A DNA stretch of 60,741 bases from PVC group bacterium (lineage in GTDB: Bacteria > Auribacterota > Erginobacteria > Erginobacterales > PUNC01): contig PUNC01000243.1 of assembly GCA_003551625.1 (NCBI GenBank), positions 1-60,741 of the forward strand, given 5' to 3'. Positions 8,903 through 56,087 of the stretch are shown one piece after another; the stretch's first letter is position 1, and the number at the start of each line of letters is the position of its first letter. The notes under the pieces were generated by a model, which did not search any database, was not told the origin of the DNA, and saw nothing but the letters and a program-made list of their open reading frames with translations. The position numbers and the translations under genes are program-made.

Positions 8903-10324
8903 TTAATCCGCCGCCTCCACGACCTCGATCATCGCGGGATCGTCGATCACGATCTGAACCTGATCCCGGTGAGTGTCCACCATTCCGGTGACCCGGACGG
9001 TTTTATTGAGGTAGTTGGCCCGGAGGGAGCCGAAGGCTTCGGTGTCGAAAATCGCCACGGTCAGCCGATCCCGGGAGTCGCGGTAGAAGTTCAGGCGGGA
9101 GGGGGCTCTGGTTCGGCTGATATAAACGTCGACGATCTGGCCTTCAACAACCACCGTTTCTCCCACCCGGTCCATCGCTTCTTCCGGCGTCACCACCGGG
9201 AGCTCCACATCCAGAATCTCGATGTCTTCGGGGGAACGCAGCATAATCTGTTTCTGTCCCCGGTGCTCGTCCACCCGGCCCCGGACGCGGACCTTCTGGT
9301 TTAAAAACCGGCTGGGGTCGCCAAAGCCGCGGTCGGCGCCCTCCCGGGTCAGGGGGAAGAAGGCGATGGTAAGGCTTTCGCGAAAATCGCGGTGCGTGTT
9401 CAATCTCACCGGGCCGGTCTGGCCGCGGGCGGCCGGATCGTAGAGATTGACGATCCTGGCCTCGACCACGACCTCCTGTCCCAGGCGGTCCATCGCCTCC
9501 CGCCAGGTCAGCGGTTCCGAAGGGTCGGCCTCCACTTCCACCTCCGCCTCTTCCGTCTCGATGATCTCGATGTCGTCGGGCGAGTTCAGCATAATCTGCT
9601 TCCGGCCCTGATAGTCGGCGACCCGGCCGCGGACGCGGACCACCTGGTTCAGAAACCGGTTGGGATCGCCGAAACCGCGGTCGGCGCCCTCCCGGGTCCG
9701 GGGGAAGTAAACAAAGGAGAGGCTTTCCCGGAAATCGCGGTGCGTGTTCAGGCTGACCGGTCCCGTGCGGCCGCGGGCCTCCGGGTCGTGAACCCCGACA
9801 ATCCGGGCCTCGACGGTGACGGTCTGCCCGACCCGGTCCATCGCCTCCTGCCAGGTCAGCGGCTCCGACGGATCGGAAGGTTCTTCCGGTTCCGCGTCCG
9901 CTTCCTCGACGCGCGAAGGCAGGGCGCCGACGATCTCGATATCGCCGGGAGAGCGGAGCATAATCTGTCTCCGCCCCTGGTGATCGGCCACCCGGCCGCG
10001 GACGCGGACTACTTGGTCGCGGAAACGTTCCGGGTCTCCGAAACCCTGCTCGGCGCCCGAACGGTCGCGCTTGAAGAAGACAAACGAAAGACTGGTGCGG
10101 TGGTCGTCGTCGGTATTCAGGCTCACCGGCCCGCTCCGGCCGTGTTCCTCGGGGTCGTAAACGTCGACAATCATCGCCTCGACGGTGACGGTCTGCCCGA
10201 CCCGGTCCATCGCCTCCTGCCAGGTCAGAGCCTCGCTCGCGGAACCGGCGGGCGGAAAGGACAGCAACGCGAAAGACAGCAGGCCGGCAAAGACGGCTCC
10301 AGCGGTTCTTCCGATAACGCTCAT
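8903..10324 (-). CDS. Secreted protein with four tandem OB-fold-like repeats
   Basis: Signal peptide MSVIGRTAGAVFAGLLSFALLSFPPAGSASEA. Then 4 repeats of LTWQEAMDRVGQTVTVEA.IV....GPV.LN......L..V.F......FGDP.RF..Q.VRVRGRV....G..QIML.SP.DIEI. GGGAGG sits 7 nt before the ATG. Confidence 0.8.
   Translation of the reverse strand: MSVIGRTAGAVFAGLLSFALLSFPPAGSASEALTWQEAMDRVGQTVTVEAMIVDVYDPEEHGRSGPVSLNTDDDHRTSLSFVFFKRDRSGAEQGFGDPERFRDQVVRVRGRVADHQGRRQIMLRSPGDIEIVGALPSRVEEADAEPEEPSDPSEPLTWQEAMDRVGQTVTVEARIVGVHDPEARGRTGPVSLNTHRDFRESLSFVYFPRTREGADRGFGDPNRFLNQVVRVRGRVADYQGRKQIMLNSPDDIEIIETEEAEVEVEADPSEPLTWREAMDRLGQEVVVEARIVNLYDPAARGQTGPVRLNTHRDFRESLTIAFFPLTREGADRGFGDPSRFLNQKVRVRGRVDEHRGQKQIMLRSPEDIEILDVELPVVTPEEAMDRVGETVVVEGQIVDVYISRTRAPSRLNFYRDSRDRLTVAIFDTEAFGSLRANYLNKTVRVTGMVDTHRDQVQIVIDDPAMIEVVEAAD
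8906..10228 (-). repeat. Intragenic tandem repeats (about 369, 348, 318 and 288 nt units)
   Basis: Units at 9860-10228, 9512-9859, 9194-9511 and 8906-9193. Units 1-3 are highly similar at DNA level (for example the recurring ccatcgcctcc.gccaggtcag). Unit 4 is divergent. Confidence 0.85.
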
Positions 10325-18649: not shown

Positions 18650-20794
<2,145 letters not shown>

Positions 20795-20803
20795 TCCGTA
20801 ATC

Positions 20804-20829
20804 GGTCCCGACGAAAGACTGTCGGGATC
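20804..20829 (+). terminator. Stem-loop just after glgX (weak terminator candidate)
   Basis: ggtcccgac-gaaagact-gtcgggatc gives a 9-bp stem with one G-U pair. No U-run follows. Confidence 0.25.
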
Positions 20830-20949
20830 TCCGTCGAAGCCGGACAGTTCCGCTTCGCTACGATGATCCGTGATCAGGAAAAGGCCCAGTCCCTCGCCCC
20901 CTTTTTGTTAACTACGAATCACGCAGATAGGCACAGATGCTAACCGGGC

Positions 20950-21185
20950 TGGACTGACAGGTTTGGAAAATATATTAACTCTGGAGCCATAGAGAACACG
21001 TACTCTTACACGTACTCTTACACATACTCATTCAAACCGGGTTATTCCGACAGGATTGGAAAAGCGTGTATATCTTAGGAAGATTGGATATTTTTAACCC
21101 GCGGTGAAACTTTGCGGGTCGATATTCGCCGCTCCCCGAACCTTGAACCCGGAACCTTTGAACCCCGGCACTTATCAACTTTTTT
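20950..21185. repeat. Mosaic intergenic repeat island, copy 1
   Basis: Modules shared with 46.9-47.1, 54.4-54.76 and 55.9-56.09 kb: 12-nt units tcttacacRtac (20992-27), an identical 30-mer (21092-21121 = 54695-54724), and an identical 35-mer (21146-21180 = rc of 54541-54575). Confidence 0.85.
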
Positions 21186-21199
21186 AAGAGGAGGTTATC

Positions 21200-38361: not shown

Positions 38362-38558
38362 GGCGTTACCTCATTCTAATAACGGAAATCAGGCTGTAGG
38401 GGCTTAGACTGTTAGACTATTAGGTAACGACTGACGAACCGGGCTGAAAGAAAGGGTCCGTGGTAAAGCAAGCTGTTTAGCCTGTTAGCCTTTCAGTCTA
38501 TTAGGCAAAGCCAAGAATTAAAACTTTGCGCCTTCGTGCCTTTGTGTGAGTTTGTAGT
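38362..38558. repeat. AT-richer stutter-repeat island between xseA and xseB
   Basis: gcttagac/tgttagac/tattaggt (38402-25). ctgtttagc/ctgttagcc/tttcagtc/tattaggc (about 38474-38507). aaactttgcgccttcgtgcctttgtgtgagtttgtagttt. Confidence 0.7.
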
Positions 38559-44154: not shown

Positions 44155-44438
44155 AATAATAGCCCTACCCTTCTAAAAAGCGGAAGAGCAAGGCTTGCAC
44201 CCCGGCGGCACGGAACGGTTGAAACGCCCGGAAAGAAAACAGTTTAACCGCTATTCACCCCGTGCCGGTAACGGCGCAATCCCGGTTTGCGCCGGGGTGG
44301 AGATACGCATTTCGCTGATTGAACCTTAAGTAAACAGCTTAACAGCTGCGAAACGATCATCTACAAACCTTCTTGCCTTGCCTGTATCCGCTTGAACTTT
44401 AATCCCCTTCTTGCCGGGGAGCGGTTGTAAACGGGAGG
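44155..44438. repeat. AT-richer intergenic island with short stutters (weaker member)
   Basis: taaacagc/ttaacagc/tgcgaaac (44331-54). cttcttgcc is repeated at about 44369 and 44407. Hairpin ggcgcaa-N7-ttgcgcc (44273-93). Confidence 0.4.
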
Positions 44439-46841: not shown

Positions 46842-47125
46842 AAAGCTTTCGTAACCAACTCTTTCGTAGCGCAGCCCTTTAGGGCTGCCCCAGTGAGGCA
46901 GGGCTAAAGCCCTGCACTACGAACTGCGAATTAAGGATGCCCGGCAGGCCGAGTTGATAAGATAATAAGTTTATAAGTTGACAAGTGCCGGGGTTCAAAG
47001 GTTCCGGGTTCTCGGAATAATCCGGTTTGAATGAGTATGTGTAAGAGTATGTGTAAAAGTACGTGTAAGAGTACGTGTTCTATATGTCTCCAGAGTTAAT
47101 ATATTTTCCAAAACTTATTAAGCGT
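46842..47125. repeat. Mosaic intergenic repeat island, copy 2 (between pheS and pheT)
   Basis: Twin hairpins 46865-46921. gataagat/aataagtt/tataagtt/gacaagtg (46956-87). 35-mer core 46976-47010. aataatccggttt 47016-28. Four 12-nt units 47035-82. ctccagagttaatatattttccaaa about 47089-47113. Confidence 0.85.
46970..46998 (-). promoter_or_regulatory. Promoter-like site inside the repeat module (TTGAAC-17-TATAAA), facing pheT
   Basis: The minus strand reads TTGAACcccggcacttgtcaactTATAAA. The same arrangement occurs at 54535-54563. Confidence 0.4.
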
Positions 47126-51100: not shown

Positions 51101-51174
51101 TGGGCGGTACTGGATTCGAACCAGCGACCTCTACGATGTCAACGTAGCGCTCTAACCAACTGAGCTAACCGCCC
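51101..51174 (-). tRNA. tRNA-Val (anticodon GAC)
   Basis: The minus strand reads GGGCGGTTAGCTCAGTTGGTTAGAGCGCTACGTTGACATCGTAGAGGTCGCTGGTTCGAATCCAGTACCGCCCA. Cloverleaf by eye, anticodon loop TTGACAT, no encoded CCA. Confidence 0.9.
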
Positions 51175-51194
51175 GGAAAGGGTAAGCCGGGATT

Positions 51195-51223
51195 AATATT
51201 CCCGTAATTCGAAGCGAAATCAA
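51195..51223 (-). promoter_or_regulatory. Candidate promoter for tRNA-Val/thrS operon (TTGATT-17-AATATT)
   Basis: The minus strand reads ggcTTGATTtcgcttcgaattacgggAATATTaatccc, 20 nt before the tRNA 5' end. Confidence 0.3.
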
Positions 51224-51226
51224 GCC

Positions 51227-51280
51227 AAAAAAATCCCCGGCCCGGCTCACTGCTCCCAACGGGGACGGAGCCGGGCCGGG
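51227..51280 (-). terminator. Rho-independent terminator after the Pro-rich small gene
   Basis: The minus strand has cccggcccggctc ... gagccgggccgggg (13-bp GC stem) followed by aTTTTTTT. Confidence 0.7.
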
Positions 51281-51301
51281 AAGAGCGGAAGTCAGGCGGA
51301 T

Positions 51302-51562
51302 TTAATGCGGCGGTTCTTTCTTTTCTTCCGGAGACCGCTGCTCGCCTCCTTCCGGAGGCTGCGATTTCTCTTCCGCCGGGGGAGGCGGCTGATCTTCCGC
51401 CGGGGGACGCGGCCTCTCTTCCGCCGGGGGACGCGGTCTCTCTTCCGCCGGGGGACGCGGCTCTTCGGGAGACGGTTTCGATGGTTTCTTGCCCGCGTTG
51501 GCAAGCATATAAACGACTATCACAGCCACCACGGCCACGATGAAAATCCAGATAACACCCAT
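51302..51562 (-). CDS. Small membrane-anchored protein with Pro/Glu-rich 8-aa repeats
   Basis: MGVIWIFIVAVVAVIVVYMLA TM helix, then (E/D)xPxPPAE x4-5. AAGGAGG 5 nt before the ATG, with its own promoter and terminator. Confidence 0.7.
   Translation of the reverse strand: MGVIWIFIVAVVAVIVVYMLANAGKKPSKPSPEEPRPPAEERPRPPAEERPRPPAEDQPPPPAEEKSQPPEGGEQRSPEEKKEPPH
51370..51465 (-). repeat. 4 x 24-nt in-frame tandem repeat
   Basis: cttccgccggggga(c/g)gcgg.. units begin at 51370, 51394, 51418 and 51442. Confidence 0.85.
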
Positions 51563-51621
51563 AATCGGCCTCCTTTCCCGAGAACCCGGTTAAAACCGGC
51601 AACCAATCGTTATGCTGATCT

Positions 51622-51650
51622 TTTATATCTTTTCCCCCATCAAAGGTCAA
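51622..51650 (-). promoter_or_regulatory. Candidate sigma70 promoter (TTGACC-17-TATAAA) for the Pro-rich small gene
   Basis: The minus strand reads aagacTTGACCtttgatgggggaaaagaTATAAAagatc. Confidence 0.45.
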
Positions 51651-52200: not shown

Positions 52201-52698
52201 TTAGCCCCCAACGGTTCTTTTCTCCAGGGCAATCAGGTAAGACTTCCAGGCGGGACCGGCCGTAAACCCCCCGACGGAACCGTCGGCCCTGATCACCCGG
52301 TGACAGGGAATAAGGAGCGGCCAGGGGTTCATTCCCAGGGCGGTTCCCACCGCCCGCCCGGCCCGGGGGCGGCCTATCCTCCTTGCCAGCCGGCCGTATG
52401 ACTCGGTCGCCCCCCAGGGGATGGCAGCGGCCCGGAGCCATACCTGTTTGACAAATTCTCCGTAAGGCTCAAGATCGGGACGAAAATTCTCCAGGGAAAT
52501 AATCCGGGCCCAATCGCGGCCGGCGACTTCATCGACGGGGTATACCTCGGGAATCCGGGGAGGCAACCGCAATGACTCCGGTTTGCCGCCTTTCCAGATC
52601 ATCGTCAGCCTGCCGATGGGGGTATCCATCGGCTCCTCCCGCCGGCCGGAGTTGAAGCTCCCGGTTCCGAATCGGTTTTCCTCTCCCGTAATCTTCAT
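52201..52698 (-). CDS. ogt: Methylated-DNA--protein-cysteine methyltransferase
   Basis: IPWGATESYGRLA..GRAVGTALGMNPWPLLIPCHRVI (PCHRV active site). ATGA overlap with the ispH-fusion stop. Confidence 0.88.
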   Translation of the reverse strand: MKITGEENRFGTGSFNSGRREEPMDTPIGRLTMIWKGGKPESLRLPPRIPEVYPVDEVAGRDWARIISLENFRPDLEPYGEFVKQVWLRAAAIPWGATESYGRLARRIGRPRAGRAVGTALGMNPWPLLIPCHRVIRADGSVGGFTAGPAWKSYLIALEKRTVGG

Positions 52699-54392
52699 CT
52701 TCCGAAAAGAAAAGCGGCCAGGCCGGCAATCACGAACTGTCCGTCAATCAATGCCTGGAATACCGGCAGGGGATAAATCCGCCTTTGCTGGAACAGCTGT
52801 TGTAAGGCCAGGGCGTAGACGTAAGCGGCGGGGGCCAGCCAGAGCCCCAGGGTGGGAGCCGCCAACCCCCCCAGCAGCAGGATGACCCCCACCACGAAGG
52901 AGTTGAGAAGCAATACCGTGATCACCGCGTTCTTCGGCCCCATCGTCACCGGCAGCGTCCGCCAGCCCATAAAACGGTCTTTCTGGGCCATGGGAAGCGC
53001 CAACAGCGTGGAGCGGTTGAATACGATCAGGAAGATCAGCGCGAAGACGCCCCCGATCATCTTGAGAGACGCCGGCGGCGAGGCGATCGCGGGAATCAGG
53101 GCGGCGACACCGGCGATGGCGCCGGCTTTCACCGATTCCCTCACCGCGGGCAGGGCCAGCGGGCTGCCGGCCGGAAATGCCAGCGGCCGCCAGCGGCCGG
53201 CGGCCAGAATCGCCGCCGGCGGCAGAAGCGCCGCCGCCGCTCCCCACGCCGGCCGGCCGACCGCCGCCAGCGAAACGAAGACCCCCGCCGCCGACACCGC
53301 TCCCAGGACCGCCGGCAGCGGGATGCCCTTCCGCTCCACCGCCCCGCTTCCGGGCCGGGCGATGTCCGCCAGACGGCGTGCCGCGAAATACTCCACGGCC
53401 AGAAACATCCCGGCCAGGGCGGAAGCCGCCCGCGCTCCGGCCCCGAGCGTGACGGCGGCGGCGTAGGTAAGCGCCCCCATCCCCAGCCCGGGATATATTC
53501 CGCTTCCGGCCAGGAAACTCAGCAGCCGGTGAAACCAGCGGCCGAAGCGGCCGCCGCAGGAGGCGAAGAGACGGTTGACTACCTCCTGGATAACCCACTC
53601 CGGGGTCGAGGCGCCCCCGACGACGCCCACCGCCCGGAACCGCTTGAGTTTTTCCGGATCGAGTTCGGCGGCGCTCTCGACCGGAATAACCACCAGGCCG
53701 AGCGAGGCGGCCAGGCGGGCCAGACGAGCGGTGTTGGCGCTGTTTCTCCCCCCCACCACGACCATCGCCTCCACCTGGGCGGCCACCCTCTTCAGTTCAT
53801 CCTGGCGGGACGAGGTCGAGGGGCAGATGGTGTCAAAAACCACCAGGTCGCGGAACTTCGAACCGATCTTTCGGATTATATCTTCAAACTCCTCGCGATT
53901 CTGCGTCGTCTGGGAGACCAGGCAGACCTTCTCCATCGGGGGCAGATCCAGAGCTTCGGCCGCCGACGAGATAACGTGTCCCCTGCCCTCCGCGAACCCC
54001 AGCAAACCCTCGACCTCGCTATGTCCCCGGTCACCGAAGATCACGGTGGAGTACCCCCGGGCGGCGAATTTCTTGATCTTGGCCTGAACCTTTACGACAT
54101 CCGGGCAGCTGGCGTCAAAAATCCGGGCCCGGGTGGCTTTGAGTCTTTCCCTCACCCCGGGCGAGACGCCATGGGCGCTGATGAACCCGGACCCGGCGCC
54201 TTCAAAATCCGCCGGGTCCCGGCTCGCCCGGATGCCGCGGCTCTTGAGCAGTTCCACCACCTGGGGGTTGTGAATAATCGGGCCGTAGGTCATTATCCCG
54301 GAATCGGAACGCTTCTCCCGCTCGAGCACCGCCTCGAGCGCGCGCTCGACGCCCATACAGAACCCGGTATTTCGGGCGACCACAATCCTCAT
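52695..54392 (-). CDS. ispH: IspH (HMBPP reductase) fused to a C-terminal polytopic UbiA-like membrane domain
   Basis: Residues 1 to about 285 look like IspH: GFCMGVERA, HNPQVV, ASCPDV, TICPST, VVGGRNSANT. Residues about 286-565 carry 7-8 predicted TM helices with ARPGSGAV and KDRFMGWRTLPVTMG, which resemble UbiA-family loop motifs. Confidence 0.8.
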   Translation of the reverse strand: MRIVVARNTGFCMGVERALEAVLEREKRSDSGIMTYGPIIHNPQVVELLKSRGIRASRDPADFEGAGSGFISAHGVSPGVRERLKATRARIFDASCPDVVKVQAKIKKFAARGYSTVIFGDRGHSEVEGLLGFAEGRGHVISSAAEALDLPPMEKVCLVSQTTQNREEFEDIIRKIGSKFRDLVVFDTICPSTSSRQDELKRVAAQVEAMVVVGGRNSANTARLARLAASLGLVVIPVESAAELDPEKLKRFRAVGVVGGASTPEWVIQEVVNRLFASCGGRFGRWFHRLLSFLAGSGIYPGLGMGALTYAAAVTLGAGARAASALAGMFLAVEYFAARRLADIARPGSGAVERKGIPLPAVLGAVSAAGVFVSLAAVGRPAWGAAAALLPPAAILAAGRWRPLAFPAGSPLALPAVRESVKAGAIAGVAALIPAIASPPASLKMIGGVFALIFLIVFNRSTLLALPMAQKDRFMGWRTLPVTMGPKNAVITVLLLNSFVVGVILLLGGLAAPTLGLWLAPAAYVYALALQQLFQQRRIYPLPVFQALIDGQFVIAGLAAFLFGR

Positions 54393-54761
54393 CTCAAGCT
54401 TCCAGGTTCAGGGGTTCAAAAGTTATAAAGCAGATTCCAGATTCTAGATTTTGGATTTCAGTCAAGCCCGGTTCCGCCCATTTTTCATCTCGGGATAACA
54501 GAAGCCCAGCAGGCCAAGTCGATAAGATGATAAGTTTATAAGTTGATAAGTGCCGGGGTTCAAAGGTTCCGGGTTTGTTCAAAGTTATTACTCGGAGCAT
54601 AAAATAGTTTACTAAGGAGAGCATAAAATAGGTTGCACGTCATTGCGAGGAGCGAAGCGACGAAGCAATCTCATTGGACATTGCGAATTGGAAATTTTAA
54701 CCCGCGGTGAAACTTTGCGGGTCGGCATTCGCTTTTAACGCTATGCCCTATGCGCTATGCG
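54393..54761. repeat. Mosaic intergenic repeat island, copy 3
   Basis: cagattc x4 stutter (54431-58). gataag 8-nt stutter (54521-52). 35-mer (54541-75). gagcataaaata x2. cattgcgaggagcgaagcgacgaagcaatc (54641-70). 30-mer (54695-724). ctatgcS x3 (54741-61), which runs into the CDS stop. Confidence 0.85.
54535..54563 (-). promoter_or_regulatory. Promoter-like site inside the repeat module (TTGAAC-17-TATAAA), facing ispH-ogt
   Basis: The minus strand reads TTGAACcccggcacttatcaactTATAAA. Confidence 0.4.
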
Positions 54762-55863
54762 TTCTTTCAACGAATTCCCTGACCGCCCGGCAAACATACT
54801 CGATCTGCTCTTCGGTCAGCTCCGGAAAGATCGGCAGCGACAGAATCTCGGCGGCCAGCCTTTCGGCCACCGGGAAATCACCGGCCGAATAACCGAGGTC
54901 GCGGTAAGCCTTCTGAAGATGAACCGGGATCGGATAGTGTATGCCGCAACCGATCCCCCGGGCGCTCAAATCGGCCAGCAGTTCGTCCCGGCGGGTGGAG
55001 CGGATCACGAAGAGATGATAGACGTGGCGGTTGCCCGGCGTTTCGGAGGGCGGGATCACGCCGGCGGAGTCCAGAAGCTCACGGTAACGATCGGCGTGGC
55101 GACGGCGGGCGTCATTCCATCCTGAAAGACGGGGCAGCTTGACGCCGAGAACGGCGGCCTGCATTGTGTCCAGGCGGCTGTTCCATCCCACGATGTCGTG
55201 ATAATACTTGCGCGACTGCCCGTAGTTCCTGAACATCCGCGCCTGCCCGGCGACCTCTTCGTCGTCGGTGACGATGGCCCCCCCGTCCCCGTAGGCGCCC
55301 AGGTTCTTCCCCGGGTAGAAACTGAAGCATCCCGCCCTCCCCATCTTCCCGCAGCGGAGGCCCCGGTATTCGGCCCCGTGAGCCTGGGCGGCGTCTTCGA
55401 TCACGACCAGGTGATACTCTTCGGCGATCGCCGCGATCGCGTCCATATCGGCGGACTGGCCGTAAAGGTGAACCGGGATGACCGCCTTGGTCCGGGGGGT
55501 AACGGCTTTCCTTACCGCCGACGGATCGATCTGGAAAGAATCTTCCCGGCAATCCACCAGGACCGGCCGCGCGCCCGCGTAGCTGATCGCGAGTACCGTG
55601 GCGATGTAGGTGTTGGCCGCCGTGATCACCTCGTCGCCCGGACCGATCCCGCAGGCTTTCAACGCCCACAGGAGGGCGTCGCATCCACTTCCGACCCCCA
55701 CGCAGTATTTCGCGCCGCAGAATTCGGCGAAGGCCTCTTCAAACGCTTCCACTTCCTCCCCAAGTATGAACGCTCCTCGTTTCATAACACTCTCGACCGC
55801 CGGGATGATCTCCGAAGCGATATTCGCGTATTGCGTCTGCAGATCGACGAACGGTATCTTCAT
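54748..55863 (-). CDS. DegT/DnrJ/EryC1 family PLP aminotransferase (WbpE/WlbC-like)
   Basis: MKIPFVDLQTQYANI..GEEVEAFEEAFAEFCGAKYCVGVGSGCDAL.. Starts at the second ATG (55863), with AAGGAG 5 nt upstream. The 576-aa track ORF is an artefactual upstream extension. Confidence 0.88.
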   Translation of the reverse strand: MKIPFVDLQTQYANIASEIIPAVESVMKRGAFILGEEVEAFEEAFAEFCGAKYCVGVGSGCDALLWALKACGIGPGDEVITAANTYIATVLAISYAGARPVLVDCREDSFQIDPSAVRKAVTPRTKAVIPVHLYGQSADMDAIAAIAEEYHLVVIEDAAQAHGAEYRGLRCGKMGRAGCFSFYPGKNLGAYGDGGAIVTDDEEVAGQARMFRNYGQSRKYYHDIVGWNSRLDTMQAAVLGVKLPRLSGWNDARRRHADRYRELLDSAGVIPPSETPGNRHVYHLFVIRSTRRDELLADLSARGIGCGIHYPIPVHLQKAYRDLGYSAGDFPVAERLAAEILSLPIFPELTEEQIEYVCRAVREFVERTHSA

Positions 55864-55866
55864 CAT

Positions 55867-56087
55867 TTCTCCTTGGGCAGGCTTTTCATACTGCTTTCCT
55901 AAGATATCCCCGTTTTTCCAAACCTGTCGGAATAATCCGGTTTGAGTATGTGTAAGAGTACGTGTGAGAGTACGTGTAAGAGTATGGGATGGATAAGAGT
56001 TCACCTTCGACATTGGACATTGAGAATTGGGAGTTGGACATTCGCTTTTAACCCTGCGCGCTCTGCGCTTCGCGTCTTTTCCCCATC
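55867..56087. repeat. Mosaic intergenic repeat island, copy 4
   Basis: ttttccaaacctgtcggaataatccggtttga (55914-45). 12-nt units gtaYgtgtRaga (55946-93). cattgga 7-nt stutter x5 (56011-45). ctgcgcg/ctctgcg/cttcgcg (56054-74). Confidence 0.85.

Follow-up and report, generated by a model that had tools for sequence, protein, structure and literature searches.

What are the short tandem words that fill the AT-rich spacers of a candidate-phylum bacterium, and do they belong to a kind of repeat already described? The question is raised by a 60,741-nt stretch of DNA (contig PUNC01000243.1 of assembly GCA_003551625.1, a PVC group bacterium of the Auribacterota), which was analysed at its full length and is hereafter called the window. 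A first reading of its letters, the original prediction, had listed independent modules made of degenerate tandem copies of 7-, 8- or 12-nt words and had recognised no described repeat class in them. The array pattern is real, strongly non-random and lineage-wide, and the arrays fit a known kind of bacterial intergenic repeat, which is itself poorly understood. The explanation that we favour, with somewhat better than even confidence, is that arrays generated by slippage and resembling the short tandemly repeated repetitive (STRR) sequences of cyanobacteria are carried on dispersed spacer modules resembling bacterial interspersed mosaic elements (BIMEs), the arrays being paired into hairpins in relatives and present in the window as unpaired solo arms.

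Arrays in the low-GC spacers

The window is a chromosomal segment with a G+C content (GC) of 64% and housekeeping genes, including thrS-infC-rpmI-rplT-pheS-pheT-mgsA, a 5-formyltetrahydrofolate cyclo-ligase gene, rny, ymdB, xseA, dxs and ispH, together with genes for an FeFe hydrogenase and PFOR and sugar-modifying genes. A few of its spacers have a GC of only 44-52%, and it is within these AT-rich spacers, or right at their borders, that the listed arrays are located. Arrays were detected using the program Tandem Repeats Finder (TRF) with a score of at least 30. For the enrichment count, arrays with a period of 6 to 13 and at least 2.5 copies were counted in 2072 nt of low-GC intergenic DNA, and 300 dinucleotide-preserving shuffles served as the null. 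The low-GC spacers contained 9 arrays, for a shuffle mean of 0.04 and a shuffle maximum of 2. The remaining 57.6 kb, mostly coding, contained 12 arrays, every one of them a GC-rich low-complexity run. The corresponding densities were 4.3 arrays per kb in the low-GC spacers and 0.2 per kb in coding DNA, a difference of about 20-fold. With the same pipeline, spacers from the initial 50 kb of E. coli K-12 gave 0.19 arrays per kb, a value equal to that of their own shuffles and about 20-fold below the spacers of the window. The two checks put forward with the original prediction, against shuffled sequence and between intergenic and coding DNA, both came out in favour of a genuine excess.

TRF reported ten of the arrays listed in the original prediction (seven with 7- or 8-nt units and three 12-mer arrays), and their coordinates were recovered. 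Two others, at 44331-44354 and 56054-56074, were missed at a score of 30; the latter is still the positional homologue of the array at 54739-54761. The units follow one another head to tail, with periods of 7, 8 and 12; being contiguous, they are unlike CRISPR units, as had been remarked. Each array was also said to decay progressively along its length. A permutation of the unit order gave P>0.15 for every array and a pooled P=0.036, which is weak, and we do not retain this claim. Confinement to the spacers holds with two overlaps, the arrays at 20783-20806 and 54739-54761 reaching into the upstream gene only over its last codons and its stop. Some arrays lie near start or stop codons. The individual arrays are the following.

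20783-20806 (+): 7-nt array gtaatca/gtaatcc/gtaatcg, holding the stop codon of a glycogen-debranching-type gene (18650-20794); TRF 20784-20803, x2.9
38402-38425: 8-nt array gcttagac/tgttagac/tattaggt in the xseA-xseB spacer; TRF 38404-38423, x2.5, score 33
44331-44354: taaacagc/ttaacagc/tgcgaaac in the pheT-mgsA spacer; array claim unsupported, not reported by TRF
46952-46987: 8-nt array in the pheS-pheT spacer, sibling of that at 54516-54552; TRF 46952-46986, x4.4, score 42
47033-47078: 12-nt array gagtaYgtgtaa, x3.8, with copies at 55944-55984 (x3.4) and 20996-21029 (x2.8, reverse); TRF scores 71, 68 and 61, respectively
54431-54461: 7-nt array cagattc/cagattc/tagattt/tggattt, about 70 nt upstream of the ispH start (54392, minus strand); TRF 54431-54450, x2.9, score 33
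54516-54552: 8-nt array gataagat/gataagtt/tataagtt/gataagtg, in module M4 (see below); TRF 54516-54551, x4.5, score 51
54553-54586: GGTTCA-type array of an 8-nt word (ccggggttcaaaggttccgggtttgttcaaagtt), with copies at 46988-47011 and 21134-21167 (reverse) and a degenerate copy at 54403-54424
54695-54732: 38-nt hairpin module ttttaac-ccgcggtgaaactttgcggg-tcggcattcgc, between the cattgga and ctatgc arrays; second copy at 21092-21129 (95%)
54739-54761: 7-nt array ctatgcS x3; TRF x3.3; diverged paralogue at 56054-56074
56009-56045: 7-nt array cattgga x5, degenerate; TRF 56009-56042, x4.9, score 31, 68% matches

The array at 54739-54761 spans the final four codons and the stop codon (54748-54750) of a DegT-type aminotransferase gene (54748-55866, minus strand). 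Past the array at 20783-20806 and a 55-nt hairpin-bearing insert, a related array (gatgatcc gtgatcagg) is found at 20862-20878; the gtaatca word is a member of the widespread CAGTNAT heptamer family. Similarly, a related direct array at 38474-38505 stands past a 48-nt insert in the same xseA-xseB spacer as the array at 38402-38425, and the fold of this array region is not significant (z-score, z, of -1.26).

Mosaic spacers and syntenic relatives

Four spacers of the window are mosaics of a few modules, common to them at 92-100% identity and combined differently. The spacers and modules are organised as follows.

Spacer A, 20795-21199 (+), GC 0.49: module M3 (12-mer), 38-nt hairpin, module M4
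Spacer B, 46842-47125 (-), GC 0.44, between pheS and pheT: M3, M4
Spacer C, 54393-54747 (-), GC 0.45: between the aminotransferase gene and ispH
Spacer D, 55867-56087 (-): between a glycosyltransferase gene and the aminotransferase gene
Module M1: 7-mer array, core cattcgcttttaac, then cattgga array; spacers C and D, with a remnant in A
Module M3: 12-mer array and tcggaataatccggtttga; spacers A, B and D
Module M4: GGTTCA-type array and gataagtt array; spacers A, B and C
38-nt hairpin module: spacers A and C

In M4, the 75-nt stretch at 54501-54575 is 92% identical to that at 46936-47010, and the copies of the GGTTCA-type array reach 97-100% identity over 36-37 nt. Every copy of the 12-nt array adjoins tcggaataatccggtttga. 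The conserved core cattcgcttttaac of M1 is found at 54726-54739 and 56039-56052, and the cattgga array has a paralogue at 54672-54693 (61 nt, 72%). The 38-nt hairpin module, present in two copies in the window and missing from the paralogous site 56039-56052, is longer than the small dispersed repeats (SDRs) of 21-27 nt. To call the arrays independent, as had been done, was thus an overstatement, the gataagtt and 12-mer arrays being copies of dispersed modules. As spacer B lies between pheS and pheT, these elements are found inside an operon. The orientation of M3 and of M4 relative to transcription is constant in all three copies of each, and that of the 38-nt hairpin module differs between its two copies. 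Except for the GGTTCA array, the modules of the window were absent from all the loci that were fetched, and the 12-mer and the 38-nt hairpin were absent from IMG/VR. Spacer C also contains a direct repeat of about 22 nt, in two copies (ggagcataaaatagtttacta / ggagagcataaaataggttgcac) at 54594-54640, between M4 and the GTCATTGCGAGG motif.

Inverted partners of the arrays of the window were sought within 400 nt of each; none stood above the null, and the arrays are not palindromic. Spacers C and D, the two richest in arrays, have folds no better than those of shuffled sequences (z of +1.0 and +1.4, respectively), and spacer A is marginal (z -1.7). The fold of spacer B reaches z -3.5, a signal that comes from GC-rich hairpins beside pheT and not from the arrays. 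A short stem is present in the 38-nt module alone. Scans of three spacers for sigma-70 promoters and intrinsic terminators gave counts at shuffle level, and Rfam 15, searched with gathering and E-value thresholds, returned tRNAs only, both for the window and for 24 other loci, related or array-bearing.

To place the window among its relatives, the PheS protein was used: its best match (77%) is on a 1-kb contig, and the next ones, at 63-65% identity, belong to PVC-group metagenome-assembled genomes (MAGs) and to Ca. Euphemobacter frigidus (Ca. Auribacterota). Six syntenic loci were compared: L017, L018, L019, L023 (from Ca. Euphemobacter frigidus), L024 and L025. The pattern is not restricted to the window, and the suggestion that related MAGs might share its grammar proved right for all six. 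Their spacers contain 3.2 arrays per kb in L017, 3.1 in L019, 2.2 in L025, 1.2 in L024, 0.7 in L018 and 0.5 in L023, for 0.19 in E. coli. In the relatives, the arrays mostly consist of an array and its own reverse complement around a loop, and arrays able to pair with an inverted array were recorded in L017, L019, L024 and L025. The resulting hairpins have 30-40 bp and -45 to -60 kcal/mol, and often begin a few bases past a stop codon. A structured RNA had been among the origins proposed for the arrays. The part of this idea that stands concerns the relatives, where long hairpins are indeed made by the arrays; those of the window have neither a partner nor an Rfam match, and spacers C and D fold like shuffled DNA.

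Words are not conserved between orthologous spacers, those of the relatives carrying unrelated ones. The pheS-pheT spacer, 284 nt long in the window, measures 264, 214, 225, 136, 72 (L025) and 2 nt (L019) in the relatives, with unrelated words (caccaagg, cgcaaaga, caggaaag). In L017, L023 and L024 it holds a word-array hairpin, each time built from another word; L018 has hairpins of other kinds there, and L019 and L025 have none. The rny-ymdB and ymdB-xseA spacers are array-rich in relatives and are themselves absent in the window. Most word-array hairpins of the relatives are single-copy, with locus-specific words. Some families of hairpins recur at several places, both in one relative and across relatives: caccaag is found twice in L017 and once in L018, and gtgtaaag in L017 and L025.

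Two other recurrent features were noticed in the relatives. A conserved frame (cttgctgcttcggaatttcaataa ... caagttgcNccgNagNNgctaacttg) flanks several of the word-array hairpins. Directly upstream of many start codons there is a small hairpin with the pattern aaRttRgc-loop-gcYaaYtt (for instance aaattagcgccggaggggctaattt), sometimes with GGAG in its loop (L017 11255-11284, 6370-6396 and 2370-2394; L018 11205-11234; L023 11120-11156).

Likeness to known repeats and the role of slippage

Arrays of intergenic heptamers are in the literature under several names (STRR, TAACTGA repeats, long simple sequence repeats), so that the view of the original prediction that no described class matches cannot be kept. 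Mrazek et al. 2007 rank heptamers first in abundance among the long simple sequence repeats of prokaryotes; the distribution is sporadic, and slippage is proposed as the cause. The STRR sequences of filamentous cyanobacteria are 7-bp repeats, capable of forming hairpins and found inside operons such as hupS-hupL; their function is not known, and roles in transcript stability or translational coupling have been proposed. TAACTGA repeats occur in Beggiatoaceae, Cyanobacteria and Bacteroidetes and are mixed with other heptamers in Microcystis (MacGregor 2015). In Xanthomonas, close relatives have GGGAATC repeats of differing length, and these repeats may also be inverted.

The likeness to STRR is extensive: tandem 7-nt words, intergenic or operon-internal spacers, several words per genome, hairpins made of inverted arrays (here in relatives) and small hairpin elements inside arrays. 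SDRs of cyanobacteria are reportedly embedded in tandem heptamers. In contrast to STRR, the host of the window is a PVC-group bacterium and not a member of the Nostocales, units of 8 and 12 nt occur besides those of 7, and the arrays of the window are unpaired and placed on dispersed multi-module mosaics. With TAACTGA repeats the arrays have in common short sets (2-6 copies) of direct intergenic heptamers near start or stop codons, a cross-phylum distribution and the lack of a known vector. Moreover, the gtaatca array is one mismatch away from CAGTTAT, a rotation of the reverse complement of TAACTGA, and gtaatca co-occurs with CAGTTAT in array-rich contigs. However, TAACTGA repeats have one dominant word, mostly just upstream of start codons, whereas the window has many words at both gene ends. 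The long simple sequence repeats with units of 5-11 nt (Mrazek et al. 2007), with the Xanthomonas GGGAATC case, resemble the arrays by their heptamer excess, their intergenic bias for non-triplet units, their sporadic phylogeny and their extensive length variation between close relatives; they are usually near-perfect repeats of a single word, while the arrays of the window are short, degenerate, made of several words and located in dispersed modules.

The spacers themselves recall the BIMEs and repetitive extragenic palindromic (REP) sequences of enterobacteria and the intergenic mosaic elements of Neisseria, being composed from a small vocabulary of motifs in varying order and orientation and placed after stop codons and inside operons. 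A BIME block is, however, an imperfect palindrome of about 35 nt recognised by a REP-associated tyrosine transposase (RAYT), whereas the blocks of the window are mostly non-palindromic tandem words, and no RAYT was found in the window.

Three observations bear on how the arrays change. Copies of one module differ by whole units: the 12-mer is repeated 2.8, 3.4 or 3.8 times, the 8-mer 1.6 or 4.5 times, and GAAC units are 4 in one copy and 3 in another. Paralogous arrays beside the same core have diverged concertedly, as seen for gcatagc x3 and its counterpart gcgaagc/gcagagc/gcgcagg. Finally, one arm of a hairpin in a relative is short by exactly one 8-nt unit. Whole-unit differences, concerted divergence and the missing arm unit are marks of slippage or unequal exchange, and among the origins first considered for the arrays, slippage is the one that gains from them. 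The long arrays of the relatives also have a higher-order period of three units, which is ordinary minisatellite behaviour. From these sequence comparisons, we infer that replication slippage is the probable generator of the arrays. It was considered separately whether the 7-mer arrays found where genes end serve to provide stop codons in all three frames; the idea fits gtaatca x3 and gcatagc x3, fails for the other arrays and is not general.

According to the explanation by slippage on dispersed modules, the arrays of the window, with their units of 7, 8 and 12 nt, would be long simple sequence repeats of the same kind as STRR and TAACTGA-type repeats. They would arise and change length by whole units, through replication slippage or unequal exchange, and they occur only in AT-rich non-coding spacers, presumably because non-triplet periods would break reading frames. 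Most of those in the window are carried in a few short modules, copied among spacers and recombined in differing order. The position of the spacers, within housekeeping operons or between them, makes it most likely that the arrays are co-transcribed with their neighbours. The hairpins that follow stop codons in relatives are probably RNA elements acting in 3'-end formation, processing or stability, by analogy with what has been proposed for STRR hairpins. We take the solo arms of the window to be recombined or decayed halves, which would have no sequence-specific job.

Several points weigh against this explanation. Slippage alone leaves unexplained why arrays build up in this clade and a few others and not in E. 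coli, as well as the presence of identical 21-30-mers (GGTTCA array, GTCATTGCGAGG...CAATC motif) in contigs of very different GC. The 12-nt unit falls outside the usual range of 5-11 nt. The fixed orientation of M3 and M4 hints at an RNA-level or transcription-linked constraint, which a purely neutral model does not predict. As for the dispersal of the modules, no module ends, terminal inverted repeats or target duplications could be defined from the 2-3 copies per module in 60 kb, and no transposase or RAYT was detected among the about 40 proteins of the window by a Pfam scan.

Alternative origins and what the arrays mean for the lineage

The last two of these points also concern the alternative that survives best, which we regard as possible if somewhat unlikely: the hairpin-bearing modules would move as non-autonomous elements similar to miniature inverted-repeat transposable elements (MITEs), REP/REPIN sequences or SDRs, the tandem words being their targets or the footprints of insertion and excision, and the enzyme being encoded elsewhere in the genome. 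It draws on the 92-100% identity of modules at unrelated loci, on the two orientations of the 38-nt hairpin and on the dispersed caccaag and gtgtaaag families of the relatives. At 54695-54732 the 38-nt hairpin is placed between two arrays, and the paralogous junction 56039-56052 lacks it, with ttttaac on both sides; two further layouts of array, insert and array are seen at 20783-20878 and 38402-38505. There is also a precedent, small dispersed repeats being reported by Elhai et al. 2008 as very small mobile elements of cyanobacterial genomes that insert at sites such as HIP1. Yet the modules have no definable terminal inverted repeats or consistent target duplications in their 2-3 copies, the window encodes no transposase or RAYT, and a copy-and-paste process leaves unexplained the single-copy, locus-specific word-array hairpins of the relatives. 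Mobile elements and slippage on dispersed modules overlap as explanations, and they are inseparable on 60 kb.

Sequences found outside the clade raise another possibility. A 21-mer within the GGTTCA-type arrays was found in one Desulfosarcina MAG and in 15 metagenome contigs with a GC of 0.41-0.64, and several of the contigs with GGTTCA arrays have an inverted partner array 100-150 nt downstream. The triplet (GTAATCA)x3 was found in 44 IMG/VR stretches. Several of these contigs hold 2-4 heptamer arrays per kb, made from CAGTAAT, CAGTGAT, CAGTGGC and CAGTTAT, and IMG/VR contigs with a GC of about 0.6 (L090 700-3200, L065, L067 and L082) have 3-4 per kb from these four words; in L090, the one contig read in detail, each intergenic spacer contains an array and an inverted array. 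Some arm sequences (the GGTTCA array, CAGTNAT words and GTCATTGCGAGG...CAATC) are identical across genomes whose GC ranges from 0.39 to 0.70. A literature search for literal occurrences of the GGTTCA array and of the GTCATTGCGAGG motif found nothing relevant.

These arrays could be members of a distinct, undescribed class of word-array hairpins, that is, small intergenic hairpins or half-hairpins whose arms are tandem short words, present in several phyla. The proposed distribution comprises the PVC clade, the Desulfosarcina MAG, other metagenome contigs and the IMG/VR contigs. We hold such a class to be plainly unlikely. If it were real, slippage would be insufficient, and horizontal spread or a dedicated machinery would be needed, such as fold-back synthesis templated by hairpins or a single-strand transposase that has escaped recognition.

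One sequence of spacer C is also distributed in this way. GTCATTGCGAGGAGCGAAGCGACGAAGCAATC, at 54639-54670, stands there as a single arm. An exact 30-mer of it occurs in 27 IMG/VR stretches (GC 0.39-0.70), usually with the reverse complement (GATTGCTTCGCTTCGCTCGCAATGAC) 15-40 nt further on, which forms a long hairpin. The hairpin matches no Rfam family, and the repeat appears, from these sequence matches, to be cross-phylum.

Very unlikely, in our judgement, is that the words are themselves functional as multivalent protein-binding sites, either for a single-stranded RNA binder (S1, cold-shock or CsrA-type) or for a nucleoid protein or regulator on DNA. Binding of this kind was argued for TAACTGA repeats by MacGregor 2015. 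It would suit arrays that are unpaired and poor in structure within transcribed spacers, as in spacers C and D, that lie close to start or stop codons and that belong to modules (M3, M4) fixed in orientation with respect to transcription. Against it, at least six unrelated words are used in 60 kb, orthologous spacers of relatives have different words, copy number is free to vary between paralogues, the flanking genes are unrelated housekeeping genes with no regulon-like association, and promoters are not in excess. Iterons, another origin proposed at first, can be set aside because the word differs at every locus, orthologous spacers carry unrelated words, the periods are non-helical and the neighbours are housekeeping genes, with no replication or partition genes nearby.

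Finally, a conserved structured RNA family, or an effect of composition, chance or assembly, is extremely improbable: the strong hairpins made by the arrays of relatives and the z -3.5 fold of spacer B would speak for structure, but the arrays of the window have no complementary partner, the signal of spacer B comes from its GC-rich, pheT-side hairpins and Rfam has no match to the arrays in the window or the 24 other loci, while chance is ruled out by the shuffles and an assembly artefact by the same grammar in independent ENA, NCBI, JGI and Logan assemblies.

Other features of the window were recorded in passing. The pheT-mgsA spacer (44155-44438) folds as a long rod (z -2.3). It is about 300 nt long in all relatives, conserved between L017 (13685-13992) and L018 (13635-13940), with a terminator at its end, and is located upstream of the 5-formyltetrahydrofolate cyclo-ligase gene, without an Rfam match. 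In E. coli, ssrS is likewise located upstream of the 5-formyltetrahydrofolate cyclo-ligase gene, and the spacer is possibly a 6S-like RNA. Within the gene at 8903-10324, three tandem units of about 348 nt (9191-10207, 65-76% identity) encode an internally repeated protein with weak OB-fold and DUF5818 matches. A 24-nt unit is repeated four times (88% matches) at 51323-51462, in an open reading frame (ORF; 51165-51650) without Pfam match, just past tRNA-Val (51101-51174). The ispH (LytB) gene at 52695-54392 encodes 565 amino acids, of which only residues 3-275 match LytB, the C-terminal part of about 290 residues having no Pfam match at E<=0.001.

The heptamer-type intergenic repeats, hitherto reported mainly from Cyanobacteria, Beggiatoaceae, Bacteroidetes and Xanthomonas, are thus extended to a barely studied candidate-phylum lineage, in which spacers of core operons, those of pheST, rny-ymdB-xseAB and dxs among them, are filled with the arrays. 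Recognising them aids the annotation of MAGs, as they create spurious ORFs and can break assemblies. With seven syntenic genomes in which words turn over very fast at fixed positions, the lineage provides material for asking whether the hairpins are selected or result from neutral slippage, and what makes a lineage prone to such arrays.

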